A DNA stretch of 64,000 bases from Octopus vulgaris. Taxonomy: Eukaryota. The notes beneath the pieces were generated by a model. It had not been told where the DNA came from, searched no databases, and saw only the letters and a list, made by a program, of their open reading frames with translations. Below, in pieces: positions 4,507 to 56,680 of the stretch (position 1 is the stretch's first letter; every line of letters starts with the position of its first letter). Location: NCBI GenBank assembly GCA_951406725.2, contig OX597821.1, forward strand, positions 92,752,001 through 92,816,000, in the 5' to 3' direction. The translations under genes and the position numbers were made by a program.

Positions 4507-4662
4507 GTCCTTTTTTTCTCCTTGTTTTTTTCTGTGTCCCTTTCTGTAGAAGAATGTAGGCTCGAAACGTAAAATACTTTTTCTATTCCTGAGCGTTATA
4601 CTAATACATGTGTTTGTTTTGTACATCACCTGTCTTCATCTTTTGTTTTTCTCGTAAACTTC

Positions 4663-4665
<3 letters not shown>
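4507..4665 (+). mobile_element. (TA)n-abutting non-coding element family X1 with degenerate hammerhead motif (PLE pLTR-like)
   Basis: Homologous to 14553-14712 and 46931-47133; CTTTCTGTAGAAGAATGTAGGCTCGAAACGTAAAA at about 4540-4574. Confidence 0.65.
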
Positions 4666-5187: not shown

Positions 5188-5702
5188 CTATATTCGTTTT
5201 ATTTTTCTGCCATATTTTCGAAATATATCAATCATCTCTATCATCTTTGATCATTTCATAATTCATAGGAATCTATTTGATAAAAAGTAACTCGTTATAC
5301 ACGTAAACAAAATGTGTATATGAATATAAAAGAAATATGAAGAGCAAAAGCGAATTAAAATAAACTAATAGAAGGGAAAATTGAATATTTCTTTAGCTGT
5401 TCCTGCCAGTGTTTTATCTTTTCTTATCTTATCATTCACATTGTTCGAGGTTCATAGTCTGGCCTCATCTATTAGCAATTACTGATACCTCCAGGTGTTC
5501 CAGTTTCTCAAATGATTCACATCTAATATACATACATATTTTTAGCAGGGACGTGACTGCGTGGTAAGAAGTTTATTTTCCAACCACATGGTTCCGAGTT
5601 CAGTCCCACTACGTGACACTTTGAGTGAGTGTTTTAACTCTAGCTTCGGGTCAACCAAAACTCTGTCAGTGGATTTGGTAGACGGAAACTGAAAGAAACC
5701 TG

Positions 5703-5742
<40 letters not shown>

Positions 5743-5745
<3 letters not shown>

Positions 5746-6076
5746 AAATATTGAATTTCTAAATCTCTCGTAGAGACATGATAATCAGTGAATAGACTTC
5801 ACTGAATATAGATATATACAAATACGAAGTCGAGGCAAATATCACCGGCTGACCGGTGTCTGCTACTCTAGGCCGATGAAGGACGACGATCCTGAAACAC
5901 GTGTCCCTAGATGCAGTTCCGGCAGCCGGGGGTGTTTGTCTCCCCTTGGTAAATGTATATAAGGACACAGGGAAAAATGTGTCAAAGCCATCAGGAGGCG
6001 TTCGATGCTTCCTAGGGCTATACAGCGGTGGTGTTCCCCCTACTGTCACGTTCTTGTTAGATTGACAGTATACAAC

Positions 6077-6081
<5 letters not shown>
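5743..6081 (+). mobile_element. Hairpin-rich ~340-bp non-coding element X6 between two (TA)n tracts (retrozyme/pLTR-like)
   Basis: (TA)n on both sides, no credible ORF, one hammerhead fold plus at least 6 stem-loops. Confidence 0.7.
5867..5911 (+). ncRNA. Minimal type I hammerhead ribozyme motif (core variant CCGAUGA)
   Basis: Stem I TCTAGG/CCTAGA; core CCGATGA; stem II AGGA-cgacga-TCCT; GAAA; palindromic stem III ACACGTGT; GUC cleavage triplet ending at 5905. Confidence 0.8.
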
Positions 6082-6134
<53 letters not shown>

Positions 6135-6343
6135 ATATATATATGCATACACACACACTATATATGTGTGTATCTGTGTGTGCATGTGTATGTTTGCCAA
6201 CCGGTTCGGCGAAAAAGATTGATAGAATAAGTACAAGACTTTAAAAAATATAAATACTGGGTTCGATTAGAGGTTGTGTTAACCTCTTGAAGGAATGGTT
6301 TCATCCAAGGAAAAATACTGGTTCAAAGTGTATATATATATAT

Positions 6344-6497
6344 GTGGCTGTGTGGTAAGTAGCTTGCTAACCAACCACATGGTTCCGGGTTCAGTCCCAC
6401 TGCGTGGCATCTTGGGCAAGTGTCTTCTGCTATAGCCTCGGGCCGACCAAAGCCTTGTGAGTGGATTTGGTAGACGGAAACTGAAAGAAGCCCGTCG

Positions 6498-6528
<31 letters not shown>

Positions 6529-6736
6529 TTGTGTCTGTGTTTGTCCCCCTAGCATTGCTTGACAACCGATGCTGGTATGTTTACGTCCCCGTCACTTAGC
6601 GGTTCGGCAGAAGAGACCGATAGAATAAGTACTGGGCTTACAAAGAATAAGTCCTGGGGTCGATTTGCTCGACTAAAGGCGGTGCTCAGCATGGCCACAG
6701 TCAAATGACTGAAACAAGTAAAAGAGTAAAAGAGAG
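6344..6736 (+). mobile_element. SINE family B, near full length
   Basis: tRNA-like head (GTGGCTGTGTGGTAAG, GGGTTCAGTCCC), CORE-like CTTGGGCAAGTG, internal (TA)n(TG)n, tail GGCGGTGCTCAGCATGGCC..TGAAACAAGT(AAAAGAGT)n. Confidence 0.92.
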
Positions 6737-7144: not shown

Positions 7145-9030
7145 ATGACAAAAAATATTGCAGTTACAATTAGAAATGACTGTGCCAAATATTGAAGATG
7201 CAATGAACTGTATGCAACAAAGAGTATGCCTTTCCTTGAAAGATATTAGTGATATACCCGAATGGGTTTATTACCAGCATTTACCCGCATCGACTTAAAG
7301 ACCTAAAATAATTTCAAAGCCAACTTCATGGGTGTTGTGGCGAGAGCACGATACCTGACGAGAATAGACGGGACCACTACATATAAATAGTAGCGGTCTG
7401 ACGTAGTCGGCAATTCGACACAAGAAAAAGAAAATTCATACACGTAAAAATAAATGGTGTAAATATTAAACTACAGTTCGATATGAATAGTGATATTTCA
7501 ATCATAAATGCGGATACATGAACAAAAGTCGGGAAACCGAGGTTACGTAAAACAGTGAAAATTGTTCGTGGCGTGACTGGCGATAAATTACATTTCATGG
7601 ACGAAATGCATCCAGACGTCACATTTCGAGGAGAAATCTGTTTGGTACAGCCTGGTTGGAGTTATTTGACTTATGGTACCTCCCCATAAGTCTCTACTAC
7701 AAGAGCATAAATGGTTATCACGTTACAAATAAATCGTCTGAGGAATTGAAGAGAAAATTTGAAAAAAAAACGATGCTTCCTCAAGTACTATCGGACTTAG
7801 TTCTATGTAAAAAGACTGAAGCCTGCTTTCAAGTAAAAACGCTGTGCCTGTATTTAAATGTAACGGAAAAGTACCGTTCGCGGTAATTGAAATCGTAAAT
7901 GAAGAGTTGGACAGACAGGAAAAGAGTGGAATCACCAAAAAGGTGGATTACTCTAAATGGGCGGCGCCCACAGTGTGCATTAAAGAGAAAAATAATAAGA
8001 TTAGTCTGTGTGCCGATTTTTCTACAGGACTGAACGACTGCTTAGAGACTAGACGCCATCAACTCCTGATTCCAGAGAACATTTTCGTAAAATTAAATAG
8101 TGGAAGAATGTTCTCCAAAATGAATCTGTCTGACGCTTATTTACAGATTGACGTAAATGACAAATGCTCAAAGTGTTTGACAATAAATACACATAGATTG
8201 TACATATACCGGATGTTTTCCTTTTGAACGGCAGTTTGTAACATAATTTCTAGGTAACTAAAAAGTTTTAAACTTCGTATACTGGTAGAATGTGTTTATA
8301 AAACATCATTTTCTCTTGGTTTTGTTGAGAAAATTCTATAGTTTGTAAGATATTTCGTCTGAAGATCCGAGTATTTCGGCAATTTTAACCAATCGATTAC
8401 CTCCATTCAACTAAAATCATTTGCTGCGTCTAAAACAGACAAAATCCTGTAACTAACCCTAAACCCCCCCTCTAACAACATCCTGTAACTAACCCTAAAC
8501 CTCCCCCTAACCCTAGGGTTAGGAGGAGGTTTAGGGTTAGTTACAGGATGTCTCAGTTTTAGACGCAGCAAATGATTTTAGCTCAAAAGAGGGCATAGTA
8601 TTGGTTAAAATTTGAAAAATTAAACTACGTTAAACAAATAAATTACAATTTTCTCAAGAAAGCCAAGAGAAAAAAAATGTTTTATTTTGACACATTCTAC
8701 CAGTATACGAAATTTTAAAGTGTTTAGTTAACTAGAAATTGTCTGCCGTTCAAAAGGAAAAGATCCCATATACCCGGTTACCTTTTGGATTAAAGCTCGC
8801 ACAGGCAATATTTCAGCAAATCATGAACGTTATGTTATCTGATTGTGAATTTGCAATCCCTTATTTGGACGATATATTGATTAAGAATAATTCGTGTGAA
8901 CAGTATGTGGAGTATATAAAAGCTGTGTTCAAGAAAATTAAAGAGTACGGATTCACTTTGAGTGAAGAAAGTTTCGAATTCTTTTTTCCTCAAATTAGGT
9001 ACTTAGAGAGAGCAAATGATTGATAAAAAT
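7145..9030 (+). pseudogene. Decayed Ty3/gypsy LTR retrotransposon pol (protease + RT), split by a MITE
   Basis: Protease-like IHVKINGVNIKLQFDMNSDISII (about 7440-7505); RT motifs SKWAAPTVCI, ISLCADFSTGLN, FSKMNLSDAYLQ, TINTHRLY / YTRLPFGLK..AIFQQIM, PYLDDILI; stops and frameshifts. Confidence 0.9.
8210..8767. mobile_element. Fold-back MITE with 6-bp TSD (ATATAC) and telomere-like palindromic centre
   Basis: Left end CGGATGTTTTCCTTTTGAACGGCAG; right end CTGCCGTTCAAAAGGAAAAGATCCC. Inverted similarity runs through most of the element. ATATAC at 8204-8209 and 8768-8773; the RT sequence resumes after it. Confidence 0.9.
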
Positions 9031-14552: not shown

Positions 14553-14712
14553 GTTGGAATTTACATAAAAAAGACAAGAAAAGACGAAGACAGTTGCGTA
14601 AACAACAAATAAATGTATACGTTTAACGCTCGGGAAGTGAGAAAGTCTTTTACGTTTCGAGCCTACGCTCTTCAACAGAAAGGAGCACAGAAATAAGCAG
14701 AGAGTGAAAATT
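14553..14712 (-). mobile_element. Element family X1 with hammerhead-like motif at 14647-14682
   Basis: Minus strand CTTT-CTGTTGA-A-GAGC-gtag-GCTC-GAAA-CG-TA-AAAG; flanked by TA repeats. Confidence 0.7.
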
Positions 14713-20709: not shown

Positions 20710-20891
20710 ACATACGGCCATATCAGGTTGAATGCAAGGGTTTTCGTCCAATCATCGAATTTAAGCGACATCGAACCTAGCGAGTACTTAGATGGGTGAC
20801 CGCTTGTGATATCTAGGTGTTGTAAGCGTCTCACACTTACTGGTGGTGCCCTAGCATGGCCAGACCCTCAAGTCTGAAACGTATAAAAGAA
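20710..20891 (+). mobile_element. 5S rRNA-derived SINE (SINE3-type): degenerate 5S head (20710-20827) plus LINE-like tail
   Basis: TACGGCCATATCAGGTTGAATGCAAGGGTTTTCGTCCAATCATCGAATTTAAGCGACATCG..AGTACTTAGATGGGTGACCGCTTGTGATATCTAGGTGTTGTAAGC is colinear with metazoan 5S rRNA. It is followed by GGTGGTGCCCTAGCATGGCC..CTGAAACGTATAAAAGA instead of an oligo-T terminator. Confidence 0.85.
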
Positions 20892-26624: not shown

Positions 26625-28064
26625 CCGTGTTTTTCCTCAGAAATATGACAGGGCTTATACTAATTAATTTTTTCCTCAGAAATATGACAGGGCTTATACT
26701 AATTAATTTTATCTCTGAAATGATACATTAGAGCATATTTTCAAGGAAGTTCCAATTTTTTCATGTACCGAAATACAAGATTACAAAATAGAAAATTACG
26801 AAATTACTAAATAAGCAGAAATTACGAAAAACGATCTAAATTTATTAGACGATTTATTACGACAGAACTTTATTAAACAGAAATTATGTAAAATGATCTG
26901 CATTTACTTGACGATTTACATGTTCTTTTACCCAGAAACTAATTAACAACAATTTATTCAGAAGCAGTCATGTCATTGTCCACTGGAATGTCATTGTTCT
27001 GCAAATCACCGGATTCCTAAATTCCTGCAGAGTTTTCGTGTGGATCCATTTCCTGCAGAACTTTCGTCCCCAATCTCTCATGTCGAGCAATAGAGGTCTC
27101 ATTGAAGGGGAATTTCTTGTCCACTTAACCTGCTCGTAGTGCACTGACAACACAGCTGTTTTTGATTTTGTTCCGCGAATTCGTCACCCAAGTCACGATT
27201 TCTTGCAGGCTGGGTTTCACAAAATTCCCACCCTGATTTCTCACCATTCTGCTTTCAATGTAGTCATTGATTTCTATACGTAAATTGCCCTTGAATCGTT
27301 TATTTATTGCAATGTTAATAGTCTTCAGTCATTCCTGTGGGTGTCATGATTTGATCTATTCTTCCTTCTGCAAGGAAGTTTTTCATGTCTTTTGCGCTGA
27401 ATCCCAGAATATCAGACCTCTATGGCCTCCTCGCAAAATAAGTGACAGCATGAAATCGACCCACTGCCTTAAAACTGCCTGTGTACAGCATGCCTTTTCA
27501 GTTTCCAGGACACAGATGCCTGAAACGTGTTCAGTTTTATTTTTCCTGCCTTTAGTGATGATTAGAGGTGAGACTTTACTTCCATCGAGACGAATTGCCA
27601 AAATACATGTAACTCGTGCACTTCCGTAACCGGTAGAGGAAATGTAGATTGATGACGCACCCCGTTGATCAATTTCATCATGCTGTTTTCTGGGAGATTT
27701 TTGCCTGAAAAGAAAATAGGTACTTATGGTTTTTGCATCTACTGATCGGTCCTGACCTCTGATGAAAATGTTACACAACACATTTGAAAGCTCCGAACAT
27801 GGGCTGTCGATTGATATATAGCTTGTTAATATTTGAGTTACGAAAGAGGTATCAACATAGATTTTGTGACGTCGTTATTTTTAGCCGCCAAAAAGATATT
27901 TTGAACAGTGTATAAACCGCAACAAAGTGGTTTGAATCAATGTGAAGAGGCTGCTTATTTCTCTCGTCTGTTTTTCGCTCTCAACTAGGGCTTGTTTTAA
28001 GGGAAGGGCTTATATTAAAATTATCCTGAAAATCATGCTAGGTCTTATTTTCGGGAAAACATGG
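26625..28064 (-). mobile_element. pogo/Tigger-like DNA transposon, internally deleted
   Basis: TIR-like TA|CCGTGTTTTTCCTCAGAAATATGAC .. GTCTTATTTTCGGGAAAACATGG; DDE remnant STGYGSARVTCILAIRLDGSKVSPLIITKG..LIFWDSA; ~40-bp tandem duplication at the left end. Confidence 0.8.
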
Positions 28065-28717: not shown

Positions 28718-29590
28718 TTAAGAACTGAAATATTTAAACTTCTTCCGTAGTTTGTGGCAACATTTCTTTGTAAAATTCCTATTAAAATTTAATAAAATTA
28801 ATTGAGAAGTAATTATATAATACATTTCTTCAAGGCAAAGAACACATATAGAATTGCTAATATTGTACGACGGCGCGTAAATAGACCACCTTAAATCGTA
28901 CTTGATGTTCCCACCTTTTAAATCCCAAATGTATTTATTACGATGGGTAGAACTAACTTCCATTCTATACTTAAATAGATAGGAATGATCATGAAATCTA
29001 GATTTACAAATTGTAATAATTTACGATCCATTGTTATTACCTTACGGTGATAGGCAATATCTTTACTTAAACACTGATTGCCTACAGAGCAGGAAATTTT
29101 GATTTTACAATCACACAGGTATTTATTCACTTGTATTTGGTACCCATTGTTGAAAGAATTCCTACTAGTTCTCATTTCAGAATTAGGCATTAATACAGGA
29201 TTATTATGGATATAATTATTATTAAAACTAACCGTTAACTCAACAGTATTATTAGATTCGGAATTACTTTTACATAAAGAATCGAAATCTAGTTCAGGAA
29301 AATTATCATTTGAATTAATTTCATAGTACATATTATCGATTTTACTCATGTTTATAGATTTTGATCTGAGATATTCCCTAATTCTCTGTTTATCGTGTGT
29401 TATTATAATCTCAGCTAAATTTCTAGTAGTTGAATAGGAAAACTTTATACTATGGTGATTAAATAATAATTTTCCATATTTACTTGAAGGTGGGAAATAC
29501 TTGTCTTGTCTAGCAAGGAAATTTCGAGGAATATTGGTAGCTACTGAATATGTGAATGGAGCATTATACCAAATAATATTCTTTGATTTA
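28718..29590 (-). pseudogene. Penelope-like element C-terminal (thumb/endonuclease) remnant
   Basis: IIWYNAPFTYSVATNI..KFSYST, CDCKIKISCSVGNQCLSKDIAY, KYIWDLK..CVLCLEEM..LLN..CCHK; matches the WFNPP / CNC..CL / C.LCL.EK / CRH pattern of invertebrate PLEs. Confidence 0.8.
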
Positions 29591-30029
29591 TTCTATTATA
29601 TATACACACACACGCGGTTTGGCAAGCGCACCAAATAGGTTCGAAGTGTATTTCGAGCAATAAGTACGTGGCTAGATGTCATCGGGACATCTATGCCATA
29701 TACTGGTTTATTGAAATTCAGTTCGTAAATTCAGCCTGCTGGAGCTTATTGGAAAGAATTTAAAGGAAAAACTTAACCATTTTACTACAGTTGTCAATTG
29801 TGGGACACGACTATCACTACTACAACATAAACCTCGTGATTGCGTAACGCATGAAAGTACTAGTTTTATCAATGAATATATAATATTCTACTATCATAAT
29901 TTTGTGAAATTGCAAACATTATAAATAATAAAGCGTGAAAATCAGACTATGTTGGAATTTCATTGATTAATATATTCTTCAAAACACAATCATGCGAACT
30001 ATGTATGTATGTATTTATGTATGTATGTA

Positions 30030-43547: not shown

Positions 43548-44008
43548 TTGACTTCAAATTTTGGCACAAGGCCAGCAAGTTTCGGGGAGTGGATAAAGCA
43601 ATTACATCAACTCTAGTGTTCAGCTGGTACCCATTTTATTGACCCAAAAAAGGGTGAAAGGCAAAGTCAACCTCAGTGGAATTCGAACTCAGCACGTAAA
43701 GATGGACAAAATGTCGCTGAGCATTTTGCTTGACATGTTAATGGTTCAGTCAGCTTGCCACCTTACCACAAATGGAAATATTGGTATAAAAGTTTGGCAC
43801 AAGGCCAGCAATTTTAGGGAAGGGTGTAAGTCAATTACATTGACCCCAGTACTTATTACATTGACTCCCTGGTACTTATTTTAATGGCCTCAAAAGAATG
43901 AAAGATAAAATTTACCTTGGTGGGATTTGAACTCAGAATGTGAAGATGAGCAAAAGGCTGCAAAGCATTTTGCCTGGCACGCTAACGATTCTGCCAGCTT
44001 GATGCCTT
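43548..44008 (-). mobile_element. Two old SINE family A copies in tandem
   Basis: Diverged reverse-complement copies at about 43548-43764 and 43785-44008. Confidence 0.8.
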
Positions 44009-44038
44009 ACCACAAACAAGAGGATTTATAACAAAATA

Positions 44039-44559
44039 TTGGTTGTCCGGAAAGTTTGTGCCAATTTTTAAAGGTAAGGAAAAGGTCAATAAATACATGC
44101 CATTACATTTTAAATCAACCAAATACGAACCATTTTGTTGCACAATGCGTCTCCATCTTTCCTTTAACTTGAAAATACCCTCTTCCCAGAATTGAGGTAA
44201 TTTCATGGCAAATAATTCATCAAGGTATCCTTTTACGTCATCCAAGGAATTGAAATTTGTACCATTAAGACTATTCTGCAGAGACCTGAATAAGTGGAAA
44301 TCCAAAGGAGCAATATCTGGGGAATATGGAGGGTGGCGAAATATCAAGTGCCGAAAATGAACTTTCTTATCTTCCATTTTAAAGGGTTACAGAATTAACA
44401 CAGGTTATAGGAACATAAACCTTCTTCCACAAAAAGATAGCTTAAACTGTGCTCTGAATGGAGATGTAGTCAAATCCTATTTTATGGACTCAACCATGTT
44501 CTAAAATAAGTTGAAAGTTAAGCTACAATAAATCGGCATGAACTTTCCGGACAACCCAA
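44039..44559 (-). mobile_element. Internally deleted mariner element
   Basis: TIRs TTGGTTGTCCGGAAAGTT / AACTTTCCGGACAACCCAA, TA TSD; ORF MEDKKVHFRHLIF fused to HPPYSPDIAPLDFHLFRSLQ..GIFKLKERW. Confidence 0.93.
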
Positions 44560-46933: not shown

Positions 46934-47133
46934 AGAGTTTACGAAAAAACACAAAAGACGAAGACAGGTGGTGTACAAAACAAACAGATGTATTAGTATA
47001 ACGCTCAGGAATAGAAAAACTCTTTTGCGTTTTGAGCCTACGCTCTTCAACAGAAACGGACACAGAAAAAACAAGGAGAGAAACAAGGAGAGAAAAAATA
47101 TGTGTAGTGGCTAACGATCTATCATGGCATCTG
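46931..47133 (-). mobile_element. Element family X1 inside (TA)n
   Basis: Reverse complement of 4507-4665; TTTCTGTTGAAGAGCGTAGGCTCAAAACGCAAAAG. Confidence 0.75.
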
Positions 47134-48628
47134 ATATATAAATATATATATATATGTATATTTCGATGATGGTTTTAGTGAATTGGTTATGTATTTGCTG
47201 GAACTCCAATTCCAGAGTTACAGGTAAGTATATTACTGGCATAGTCCGTTGCTTGGATTAGCAACACCAAATAACTATCTCTGAGCAGCAAGAATTTGGT
47301 CCAGGTTTCCATTCTGAGGATAACTTCATTGCTACTTCGAATAAAATCTGAAGCCCTGGACATTAATATATGAATGCATGTTTACACGCGCACACACACA
47401 CACACACACATATATATATTGTAAGCATGCATGTATGGATGTACGTATGTAACAGGTAGGTAATAGGTAGGTTGGTATGTGCATGTGAAAAACTTAAGCA
47501 CTGACAGCGTGTAAAATGCAGGAAACATTATATAAACATGGAAGTTATTTCCTCTCATTTGCTCTTAATTGAAGATCAACGCAATTTTGGTACGTTATTA
47601 ACAGGATTGCTCAATTTAGGTTGCTATTACTGATACCAAGGACATGACTACAAAAACTACAGGAAAAATTATGCAGAACAAATGACTGATTTTTCTTTAA
47701 CCTAATGAGAAATCAGTTCGTGTGAAATAAGCTGAGTGCAGAATGAAATGGGAAAAAAATTATAAAAAGTGAAGTCTTTAATTTCGGGTGAAAAAAAAAA
47801 ACAAAAAACAACATACCAGAAACAGTTACCTATAAAGTAATGTTAAGGGGATATATAAGAGGGCATTGGAAGTTAGCCCTTGGTCAATGAGAGATACATA
47901 GCAGACAATAAGATGACAGGTATCAGATACTGTGACACCTGAGCTTCATGCATGGGATGATCGAAAAGCATACTGAGAAAAGATACAATAAAACAGGGAG
48001 GGGATGGTGGTGCTGGAGGAAGAAGAGGAGCTAGAGATGAAAGACGGGTAGAGGAGGAGGGAGAGGATCTAGAGATAGAAGAGGGGTTGAGGAGGAGGAG
48101 GAGGGGGAGCTAGAAGTGGAAGAGGAGGTAGAGGAGGACATAGAGGAGCAAGAAGATGGAGGAGCAGGAGGAGGAGATAGAGGTGGAGGAGGGGATAGAT
48201 GTGCAGGAGGAGGGGATAGAGGAGGAAGAGGAGGAGTAGGAGGGGATATAGGAAGAGGAGAAGAAGGAGGAGATTGACAAGCAGGAGGAGGAGATAAAGG
48301 AGCAGAAGGAGAAGGATGCGTGTGGAGATGAGAATTAGAGAGAAAATGAAAGATGAGAGAGAGAACGAAAAAAGCGAAGAAGCTAATCGCTTAGAAATAC
48401 ACATTCATGTGGAGAAAAATGATAGCGACGCATTACGTCTTAACATTACTTTCACAAAATCGTTTCTGCCTCTGTCCACTGTTTCTTACCTTTGTTCTTT
48501 TGTCCCACGTTCTATTTGCTTCCGTCATGCTAGCTGACTTTTCGTTATGTCCATCGACTTGAACATTTGTTGTCCTTAATTTTTCATGTTTTCGTATACT
48601 GGTAACTTCGTTCTCCGATATACATACG

Positions 48629-55400: not shown

Positions 55401-56680
55401 TCAGGTTGAGAAAAAGTAAGCAACGTTTTGAATCATGAAGAATTTGTACCAGATTTTTGCAGTGTTTTGAATTTTTTTAAACATTTTTTTTTCTGCAATT
55501 ATCTGATAAAACAGACATAGATTTATACAAATGCATCAATAAATTAACATCGCTATTTTTTCACCGTTGTTACAATCATCTGAAATGGAACTGTCAAAGC
55601 TTGATATTCGAGCAATTTTGCTATTCAACTTCAAAAAGGATGTAAAGCGGCTGAAACTGCCCACGATTGGTGAGGAAATGTTTGGTGAGGAAAAGACCAG
55701 TGAGTACTCAGCTCGAAAATGGCTTAAACAATTTCGCAGTGGTGACCTGAGCCTTCAAGATCGTGAGCGTAGTGAACGCCCATCTGTCATTGATGACAGT
55801 CAGTTAAAGACCGTCATTGAGAAAGATCCACGTAAAACCACTCGAGAACTGGCAAAAAGTTAGCTAGAAAACCGCTTGCAACCATTTGCATAATATCGGA
55901 AAATCAAAAAAGCTTGACAAATGGGTTCCACACGATTTGAATGAAAATCAGAAAATGCGCAGATATGAAATTTGCTCGTCGCTTCTTCCCCGTAACCAGA
56001 CCGATCCATTTCTTGATAGTAATGTAACTTGAGATGAAAAGTGGATTTTTTACAATAATAAAAAACGTTCTTCGCAGTGGTTGGACCAAAATAAAGGATC
56101 AAAAACCTTCTCTAAACCCGAGCTCTTCAAAAAGAAGGTTATGGTGATTGTTTGGTGGTTTACTGCTGGACTCATCCACTATAACGTCTCAAGACTCGGA
56201 ATAAACCATTACTGCAGAAACATATTACCATGAGATTGCCAAAGTGAAGGAAAAAATGCTAGTCCTCCGTCCCAGACTGGTCAACAGAAGAGGGACAATC
56301 ATTCTTCATGACAATGCTCGACGACACGTTTTAATAACGACGCTCCAGAAGTTGAGAGAACTTGGCTACGAAGTTCTTCCCCACCCAGGTTATTCACCAG
56401 ACGTTTCTCCTACCGAATACCACTTTTTCAAGCACATTGATGGCTTCCTTCAAGAGAAGGACTTCAAAAATCAAACCGATGCTGAAAGTGCGTCAAAAGA
56501 GTTTATCAGCTCCAGAACTCCAGATTTTTATGTTACCGGAATAAACAAACTTGTAAGTCGTTGGGAAAAGTATATTGATTGTAAGGGTACTTACTTTGAT
56601 GAATAAAATTTCCGCATTGTTAAAATATATTGTGATGCATTTCATGTTTCAAAACGTTGCTTACTTTTTACTCAACCTGG
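55401..56680 (+). mobile_element. Full-length mariner element with disrupted transposase
   Basis: ~30-bp TIRs TCAGGTTGAGAAAAAGTAAGCAACGTTTTGAA / TTCAAAACGTTGCTTACTTTTTACTCAACCTGG, TA TSD, 1280 bp. Motifs WVPHDL, DEKW, LHDNAR, HPGYSPDVSPTEYHFF; frameshifts between ORFs 55567-55863 and 56244-56606. Confidence 0.96.

Follow-up and report, generated by a model that had tools for sequence, protein, structure and literature searches.

A hammerhead-bearing repeat of Octopus vulgaris, best read as a non-LTR retrozyme, with insertion ends like those of Penelope-like elements

What kind of element is the hairpin-rich, hammerhead-bearing segment that lies between two (TA)n tracts in the 64-kb stretch of Octopus vulgaris DNA analysed here (the window), and how was it put there? 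The preliminary description of this DNA had proposed a self-processing small RNA element of about 340 bp, mobilised by proteins of Penelope-like elements (PLEs). The (TA)n bounds are present on both sides, and helix I, the palindrome, the GUC at 5903-5905 and all six hairpin pairs are where they had been placed. The 339 bp, however, make up two arms of an insertion and not a unit, the monomer being 363 nt, and that description had missed an inverted second arm, two fixed end sites, a promoter-like motif and a LINE target site. The best reading of the stretch is that it is a member of a family of non-LTR retrozymes.

The window copy, its repeat family and its hammerhead

The window copy is a two-armed insertion that consists of a long (+) arm and an inverted short (-) arm (Table 1). 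The piece found in the short arm (unit 322-361) occurs in sense orientation inside tandem copies. The insertion target was the internal microsatellite of an older host repeat, which we take to be SINE-like, and the two halves of this repeat now flank the copy. The region folds far beyond shuffled sequences (z -7.9 on the + strand and -5.5 on the - strand). Although the six hairpins described earlier exist as pairs, two of them (5843-5858 and 5919-5929) fold, according to the prediction, against each other as part of a long rod. The copy had also been called the best preserved of its kind, but it differs from the family at 9 of 303 nt, and one of these differences, G5885 in loop II, is private to it, the column being A in 113 of 113 other passes. 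With a promoter core but one ribozyme, the window copy is likely a dead end for further copying.

Table 1. Coordinates of the features at the locus (window numbering)
Feature	Position	Strand	Remarks
Left part of older interspersed host repeat	5553-5704	+	80% to uninterrupted copy at 6344-6496
Left (TA)n	5705-5742		part of split target
Short arm	5741-5780	-	unit 322-361; 100% to family majority; ends at fixed site B beside left (TA)n
Long arm	5779-6084	+	unit 1-306; 97% to family majority; ends at fixed site A beside right (TA)n
U1/U2-promoter-like motif	5781-5795	+	core ATCAGTG at 5784; 57 nt before 5841; best site of matrix
Target of ORF1-only LINE derivatives in other copies	5838-5854	+	empty in window copy; predicted transcription start about 5841
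Type I hammerhead	5860-5916	+	motif scan, folding; predicted cut after C5905
Hammerhead distal stem, 4 bp	5860-5863/5913-5916	+	set off from helix I by internal loop
Hammerhead helix I, 6 bp	5867-5872/5906-5911	+	
Hammerhead core with U4C	5873-5879	+	U4C at 5874
Hammerhead helix II, 4 bp	5880-5883/5890-5893	+	
Hammerhead GAAA	5894-5897	+	
Palindrome	5897-5904	+	
Right (TA)n	6082-6144		part of split target
Right part of interrupted host repeat	6159-6268	+	78-79% to uninterrupted copy at about 6506-6665

The length of the monomer, as read from tandem copies, is 363 nt, with a GC content of 44%. The unit is non-coding, and no LTR structure was present in 116 loci. A similarity search of the genome (2.8 Gb in 227 contigs) gave 2,100 candidates, of which 40 were scored, the best copies being 93-98% identical. 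Exact matches across the genome numbered 416 for a 19-mer of the ribozyme and 1,876 for a 22-mer near the unit end/site A, with none for the controls. With well over a thousand young copies, the family is a small mobile repeat without a protein of its own, in agreement with the earlier suggestion of a multicopy, non-autonomous element of retrozyme type. Its circular fold has a z of -7.8. Passes through the unit differ by 2.2-2.3% within an insert and by 6.4% between inserts. A sister family with a 351-nt majority unit, 75% identical, counts 2,953 candidates and has the canonical U4 core. Contigs that hold parts of the unit were found in 14 runs guessed to be RNA and in 5 unlabelled runs (4 organisms); the depth profile across the unit in 4 of those runs resembled that in a large unlabelled run and defined no read ends.

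The counts of inserts given below come from 116 loci with 125 inserts, namely all 76 loci into which the first 100 listed matches to the ribozyme fall (C1-C4), which necessarily contain a ribozyme, and 40 more taken from about 54 further C1 sites found by their end pattern. Loci picked by exact patterns favour young copies.

The motif scan returned a single type I hammerhead-like match within the window, and an Rfam search of the window matched no hammerhead family. What had been described as a complete minimal hammerhead is of canonical size, with a helix I of 6+4 bp, a helix II of 4 bp and a helix III of 1-2 bp with a palindromic tetraloop, around a U4C core; by the definitions in PMC4209133 this is the canonical metazoan type I form. 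The minimal hammerhead of PLEs described there (Cervera 2014) differs in having a short helix I, a long helix II and no helix III stem. At core position 4 (5874) the canonical base is U and the base found is C. Among the first 100 ribozyme matches listed, this position was C in 97 and T in 3; since C4 precedes a G, the three T copies may have arisen by deamination. The U4C change, known from a viroid variant, lowers hammerhead activity in vitro (PMC3088659).

On folding, helix III had a formation probability of 0.0 in the monomer, and the two-strand minimum was a double-hammerhead fold (-37.7 versus -28.0 for two free monomers); the predicted dimer is in line with the idea that cleavage occurs in dimers. 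Stem covariation had been named as a check on the earlier reading. Across the sister families helix I did show compensatory changes, its pairing being kept by double changes in 3 of 6 pairs among 50 aligned copies that included the sister family (G-C to A-U in 16 rows, U-A to C-G in 8). None of 500 shuffles reached the covariation score, a significance inflated by the kinship of the sequences, and the changes amount to few independent events in related sequences; the helix II columns were misaligned by MAFFT. RNAalifold on the whole unit gave a double change in 14 of 72 pairs. Further hammerhead families were seen at L224-L226, L230, L231 and L300-L304, some of them with covariation of U3-A8 in the core, and C4 was seen in L296.

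Two insertion end sites and the Penelope-like elements

The inserts have two fixed 3' ends in the unit, 57 nt apart, at site A (unit 300-308) and site B (unit 354-363 and 1). These two slots cover 20 of 363 positions and hold 172 of the 196 outer 3' ends. Both ends were at A or B sites in 54 of the 71 head-to-head inserts, with one end elsewhere in 13 and both elsewhere in 4. All 54 paired an A with a B end, with zero A+A or B+B (p 6e-17) and with the sides divided 27 and 27; one A+A insert (L206) was met in a separately chosen sample beyond the 125 counted inserts. Inserts of a single orientation (n=54) ended at A in 28 cases, at B in 23 and elsewhere in 3, and a search of them for hidden mini-arms gave 2 of 54 only. 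As the preliminary description had claimed, microsatellites are targeted: (TA)n directly followed 103 of the 196 outer 3' ends, against a background of 3.5%, and the other targets were AT-rich DNA. Target duplications of 7-12 bp were present in 8 of 12 A+B inserts outside microsatellites and in 3 of 132 controls.

Many arms read well into the unit. Sixty-one of 198 were longer than one unit and 117 crossed the cut site; the longest measured 1,224 nt, so that tandem copies with two or more complete ribozymes exist in the family. In two-armed inserts, B was passed by 19 of 52 A arms and A by 51 of 52 B arms, which means that both arms often copy the same stretch. The 5' ends were not piled up at the cut site (3 of 186, with 3.6 expected). 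The two-armed inserts suggest a Penelope-type enzyme that copies from two fixed start points.

A search of the genome for GIY-YIG domains revealed many intact frames of 781 aa with reverse transcriptase (RT) and GIY-YIG domains. In 18 copies of this PLE the 3' end took one of two positions, separated by about 37-40 nt, and all 18 ends were in (TA)n (14 short, 4 long). Both inverted arms seen used the other 3' end. An intact local PLE therefore has a two-end footprint like that of the retrozyme, and the mobilisation by PLE proteins that had been proposed accords with the two 3' ends, the inverted 5'-truncated arm and the AT-rich targets. Copies always attached to a PLE reading frame would have pointed to an ordinary PLE; a PLE-like match lay within about 4 kb in 5 of 116 loci and abutted the retrozyme in 1. 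A comparison of the retrozyme unit with the ends of two young local PLE families gave no sequence likeness. For the lizard PLE PAc, two internal RT start sites and cleavage and extension of AT-rich DNA on both strands have been described, with a protein that is predicted to be a dimer and that inserts in vitro without ribozyme cleavage (PMC11167929). Tandem and inverted copies with a tail are regarded as PLE-specific, unlike LINE-type priming (PMC8557442).

In the one abutting case, L125 (958-4109), a 5'-truncated PLE of a second family is joined, without intervening TA, to a retrozyme arm at its B end, so that the PLE frame meets the arm at the arm's 3' end; the opposite retrozyme arm ends at A, and both outer ends are in (TA)n. 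This PLE family has a 632-aa open frame and 2,833 candidates. L125 is possibly a PLE-retrozyme chimera made by a template jump, a lead from a single locus that an insertion with a small deletion would also explain. That its PLE family is the partner of the retrozyme is a tentative idea, which we rate as rather improbable. L091 was considered as a second chimera and set aside, since its joint holds 8 nt of TA; at L047, L068 and L188 the two elements are neighbours, placed tail-to-tail or separated by TA.

Some PLE-related sequences were observed besides. A young intact PLE at L237-L252 carries another frame, of up to 479 aa, ahead of the 781-aa frame for RT and GIY-YIG; near the end of the element lies a motif resembling the U3-A8 core. 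The window itself holds old relatives (76-78%) of the terminal repeat of the L125 PLE family at 4508-4664 (+), 14567-14691 (-) and 46938-47135 (-), the first and third of which end in (TA)n.

Several other features lie in the window. At 20710-20828 (+), directly after an (ATAC)n tract, is a 5S rRNA-like sequence (66.9 bits against a cut-off of 38) that is probably a degenerate copy. The 224-aa frame at 28918-29592 (-) belongs to a large decayed repeat family with 152 matches; by its motifs it may be PLE-like, and searches for a Pfam match, a longer homologue or a match to the two local PLE proteins gave none. The frames at 7820-8227 (+), 43982-44386 (-), 56205-56606 (+) and 27383-27874 (-) resemble fragments of LTR-type RT and DDE transposases, and the three of them that were scanned had no clear Pfam match.

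A promoter-like motif and LINE insertions within the repeat

The 5' arm of the first hairpin of the preliminary description coincides with a motif that resembles the promoter of U1 and U2 snRNA genes. Our set comprised 28 U1/U2 genes; with 2 LINE-occupied genes dropped, the 26 with native upstream DNA, which fall in 5 classes, all had the motif at -57 to -61. A matrix built from the 5 classes scored highest, for the unit as for the window copy, at -57 from unit 63 (5784), and the chance of the motif within the 7-nt slot is 0.003. Alignment with U1/U2 starts predicts that transcription would begin at about 5841. One other LINE-targeted family was without the exact motif. On these grounds we rather favour the presence of an snRNA-type promoter inside the unit. 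A promoter of this type has been demonstrated by experiment in newt satellite 2 (Coats et al. 1994, cited in PMC2220036).

The region of the predicted start is occupied in other copies. In L014 and in 4 of the 116 loci, unit 60-76 (window 5838-5854) is the site of an inserted 1.7-kb ORF unit, which two of them carry as a tandem double, and at least 18 exact 3' joints of the ORF unit at the retrozyme site were counted genome-wide. It encodes a 459-aa protein whose structural model (pLDDT 89) has two RRM-like domains and a CCHC knuckle, and no RT was found within the unit; the model suggests a protein of LINE ORF1 type. Diverged ORF units precede the ribozymes of other families, and some ORF-unit subfamilies are in targets without likeness to the two retrozyme families.

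A LINE with APE and RT domains shares this target. Its best match of solved structure is human L1 ORF2 (E 2e-48), and by this match only it would be classed as L1/Tx1-like. Among 30 LINE copies, 17 had by pattern an end that lies 32-37 nt ahead of C3 of a hammerhead, to which inspection by eye added 2; 3 stopped directly ahead of a complete U2 gene and 1 ahead of a U2 start, 5 preceded a duplication and another unit, and 2 were elsewhere. None of the 30 was in the subfamily of the window copy, and two were in copies of the sister family. The LINE has ends of its own and duplications of 15-19 bp, unlike the A/B footprint. Neither of the two LINE copies retrieved contained ORF1. The ORF1-only units may be derivatives of this type of LINE; HAL1 (half-L1) elements are reportedly ORF1-only derivatives as well. 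The landing site of the LINE in the repeat is likely also the start of the repeat's transcription, as judged from the motif and the alignment.

Related insertions were noted elsewhere in the genome. The copies of a single LINE subfamily at L278, L279, L282 and L285 stop ahead of U2 snRNA genes as well as ahead of retrozyme hammerheads. Tandem trains of ORF1-only CCHC units with a period of about 1.8 kb lie at L217-L222 and L236; they are near-identical on several contigs, and their target is unmatched to the two retrozyme families. At L206 and L207/L191, ORF1-only units have no upstream retrozyme flank but terminate in an arm whose end is at A or B; they may have travelled as cargo of the PLE route.

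Routes of copying and relation to known systems

We consider it probable that the retrozyme is a non-coding 363-nt element pasted into (TA)n or AT-rich DNA by a PLE RT/GIY-YIG protein in trans, likely from a circle. That its RNA is pasted in the manner of PLEs can be held with good confidence, and for a circle as the template there is a slight preference. Source copies longer than about 1.4 units would be transcribed from the internal snRNA-type promoter, with a start near unit 63; two hammerheads, probably as a dimer, would release the monomer in a cleavage that the U4C core would make slow, and the monomer would be ligated into a circle. The PLE protein, acting as a dimer, would nick the two strands of the DNA at points a few bases from each other and prime one at A and the other at B, its RT would copy past the ribozyme and past one unit, and the two truncated cDNAs would be joined head to head. 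An L1/Tx1-like LINE and its ORF1-only derivatives would form a second parasite tier that inserts at the predicted start site. A wider proposal places three tiers in one RNA, namely an snRNA-type promoter with a slow U4C circle, PLE copying with one start per strand by an L125-family partner caught jumping onto B, and ORF1-only LINE derivatives that are sometimes cargo; this we regard as speculative.

The same PLE-type pasting could draw on uncut linear concatemeric transcripts of tandem loci, with a slow or vestigial U4C ribozyme and no circle. Such a template could serve, since U4C, which is fixed in the family, lowers activity (PMC3088659) and PLE insertion works in vitro on unprocessed RNA (PMC11167929); moreover, most insert-private variants are unshared between passes, 14 of 139 recurring in a second pass. 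Yet helix I, the GAAA, the palindrome and the cut site are conserved and covarying across families, and a promoter core with two ribozymes in one arm was present in 4 of 123 inserts, even though arms reach 3.4 units. The 5' ends did not pile up at unit 63, the predicted transcript start (2 of 186, with 3.6 expected), and the related repeats of mussel, coral and axolotl form circles (PMC7229834). We find this course less likely, and keep the circle as the preferred template.

Retrozyme sequence on both sides of the ORF units might mean that the unit is a terminal repeat of the 1.7-kb ORF1-like element, or that the L1/Tx1-like LINE mobilises it, and the few cargo-like units without an upstream flank (L206, L207/L191) fit such a view. 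The ORF units, however, are in just those 4 of 116 loci, and the LINE ends and duplications differ from the A/B footprint. At the 14 loci with both flanks there were 13 marker haplotypes, with upstream markers that match empty copies of the same downstream haplotype (permutation p 1e-4), and the distances of ORF tail and flank were uncorrelated (r 0.05, p 0.34, n 17). These results indicate independent targeted insertions and rule out a single composite parent of ORF unit and retrozyme; we judge a terminal repeat or LINE-driven mobilisation to be quite improbable. That the copies are solo pseudo-LTRs, the 5'-truncated ends of an ordinary autonomous PLE and no separate element, is largely refuted and most improbable, for although their footprint is that of PLEs and such ribozymes are tied to pseudo-LTRs in PMC4209133 and 10.64898/2026.07.22.740005, the 61 arms longer than 363 nt run into another unit and no ORF, the single abutting PLE frame among 116 loci is at the arm's 3' end, and likeness to the two young PLE families is lacking.

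A non-coding retrozyme with PLE-type pasting resembles the metazoan non-LTR retrozymes (Cervera and de la Pena 2020, PMC7229834), whose repeats measure 350-390 bp in mussel and 330/350 bp in axolotl. It shares with them a non-coding unit of 170-400 nt with GC under 50%, a single hammerhead of canonical type I in each unit, its helix III being palindromic and weak, an arrangement in partial tandems, a highly paired predicted circle, duplications longer than 4 bp, and PLEs in the same genome. It differs from them, as they are presented in the accessible parts of that paper, in its fixed U4C core, in being mostly dispersed as two-armed inserts and not as long arrays, and in having a strict rule of two end sites, a promoter-like motif and a site targeted by a LINE. 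Both cleavage and circles have been demonstrated for those retrozymes; for the octopus family they are predictions.

Like PLEs (PAc, Frangieh et al. 2024, PMC11167929; Craig et al. 2021, PMC8557442), the octopus inserts have two 3' ends a short tail apart, an inverted 5'-truncated second arm and AT-rich or microsatellite targets, and the unit has at site A an unpaired AC-rich stretch like that of PAc. Unlike the PLEs in the available text of those papers, the unit is without an ORF and its tail is 57 nt against 30-40; its arms also make more than one full turn round a unit that is non-coding, and it is unlike both local families compared. Xenopus retrozymes have been interpreted as non-autonomous PLE derivatives (Li, Clavereau and Pollet 2026, 10.64898/2026.07.22.740005), with the same proposed partner; the argument there, in the part available, is from co-occurrence and pseudo-LTR homology, and ours is from the insertion footprint, homology not having been found. 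Newt satellite 2 (PMC2220036) is likewise a hammerhead repeat with an internal snRNA-type promoter, which in octopus is suggested by the motif and the LINE target. The LINE recalls those of the Tx1 clade with APE and RT and fixed multicopy targets (Tx1L in Tx1D, Keno in U2 genes; PMC4494074, PMC4640811), but the sites that it takes lie in a ribozyme repeat, 32-37 nt ahead of C3, and at the very start of U2.

Retrozymes, the PLE tail, satellites with snRNA promoters and Tx1 LINEs that target repeats are each already known. Our literature search, which left most subscription papers and supplements outside, where cephalopod or U4C examples may be found, returned no retrozyme family fixed for U4C, no two-site end rule for a retrozyme, no LINE in a retrozyme and no report of the combination.

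How animal retrozymes return to genomes is at the stage of proposal in the available text of PMC7229834 and 10.64898/2026.07.22.740005. A protein-free RNA of 363 nt with two mapped start sites and a pairing rule kept in 54 of 54 inserts offers a minimal substrate for an in vitro PLE assay, and the A+B rule makes a sharp prediction on how a PLE dimer primes two strands. With a U4C core throughout the family, nature has set up a test of the degree of cleavage on which a retrozyme depends. The promoter-like motif and the site targeted by the LINE, if true, would explain both the transcription of the repeat and the choice made by its second parasite.
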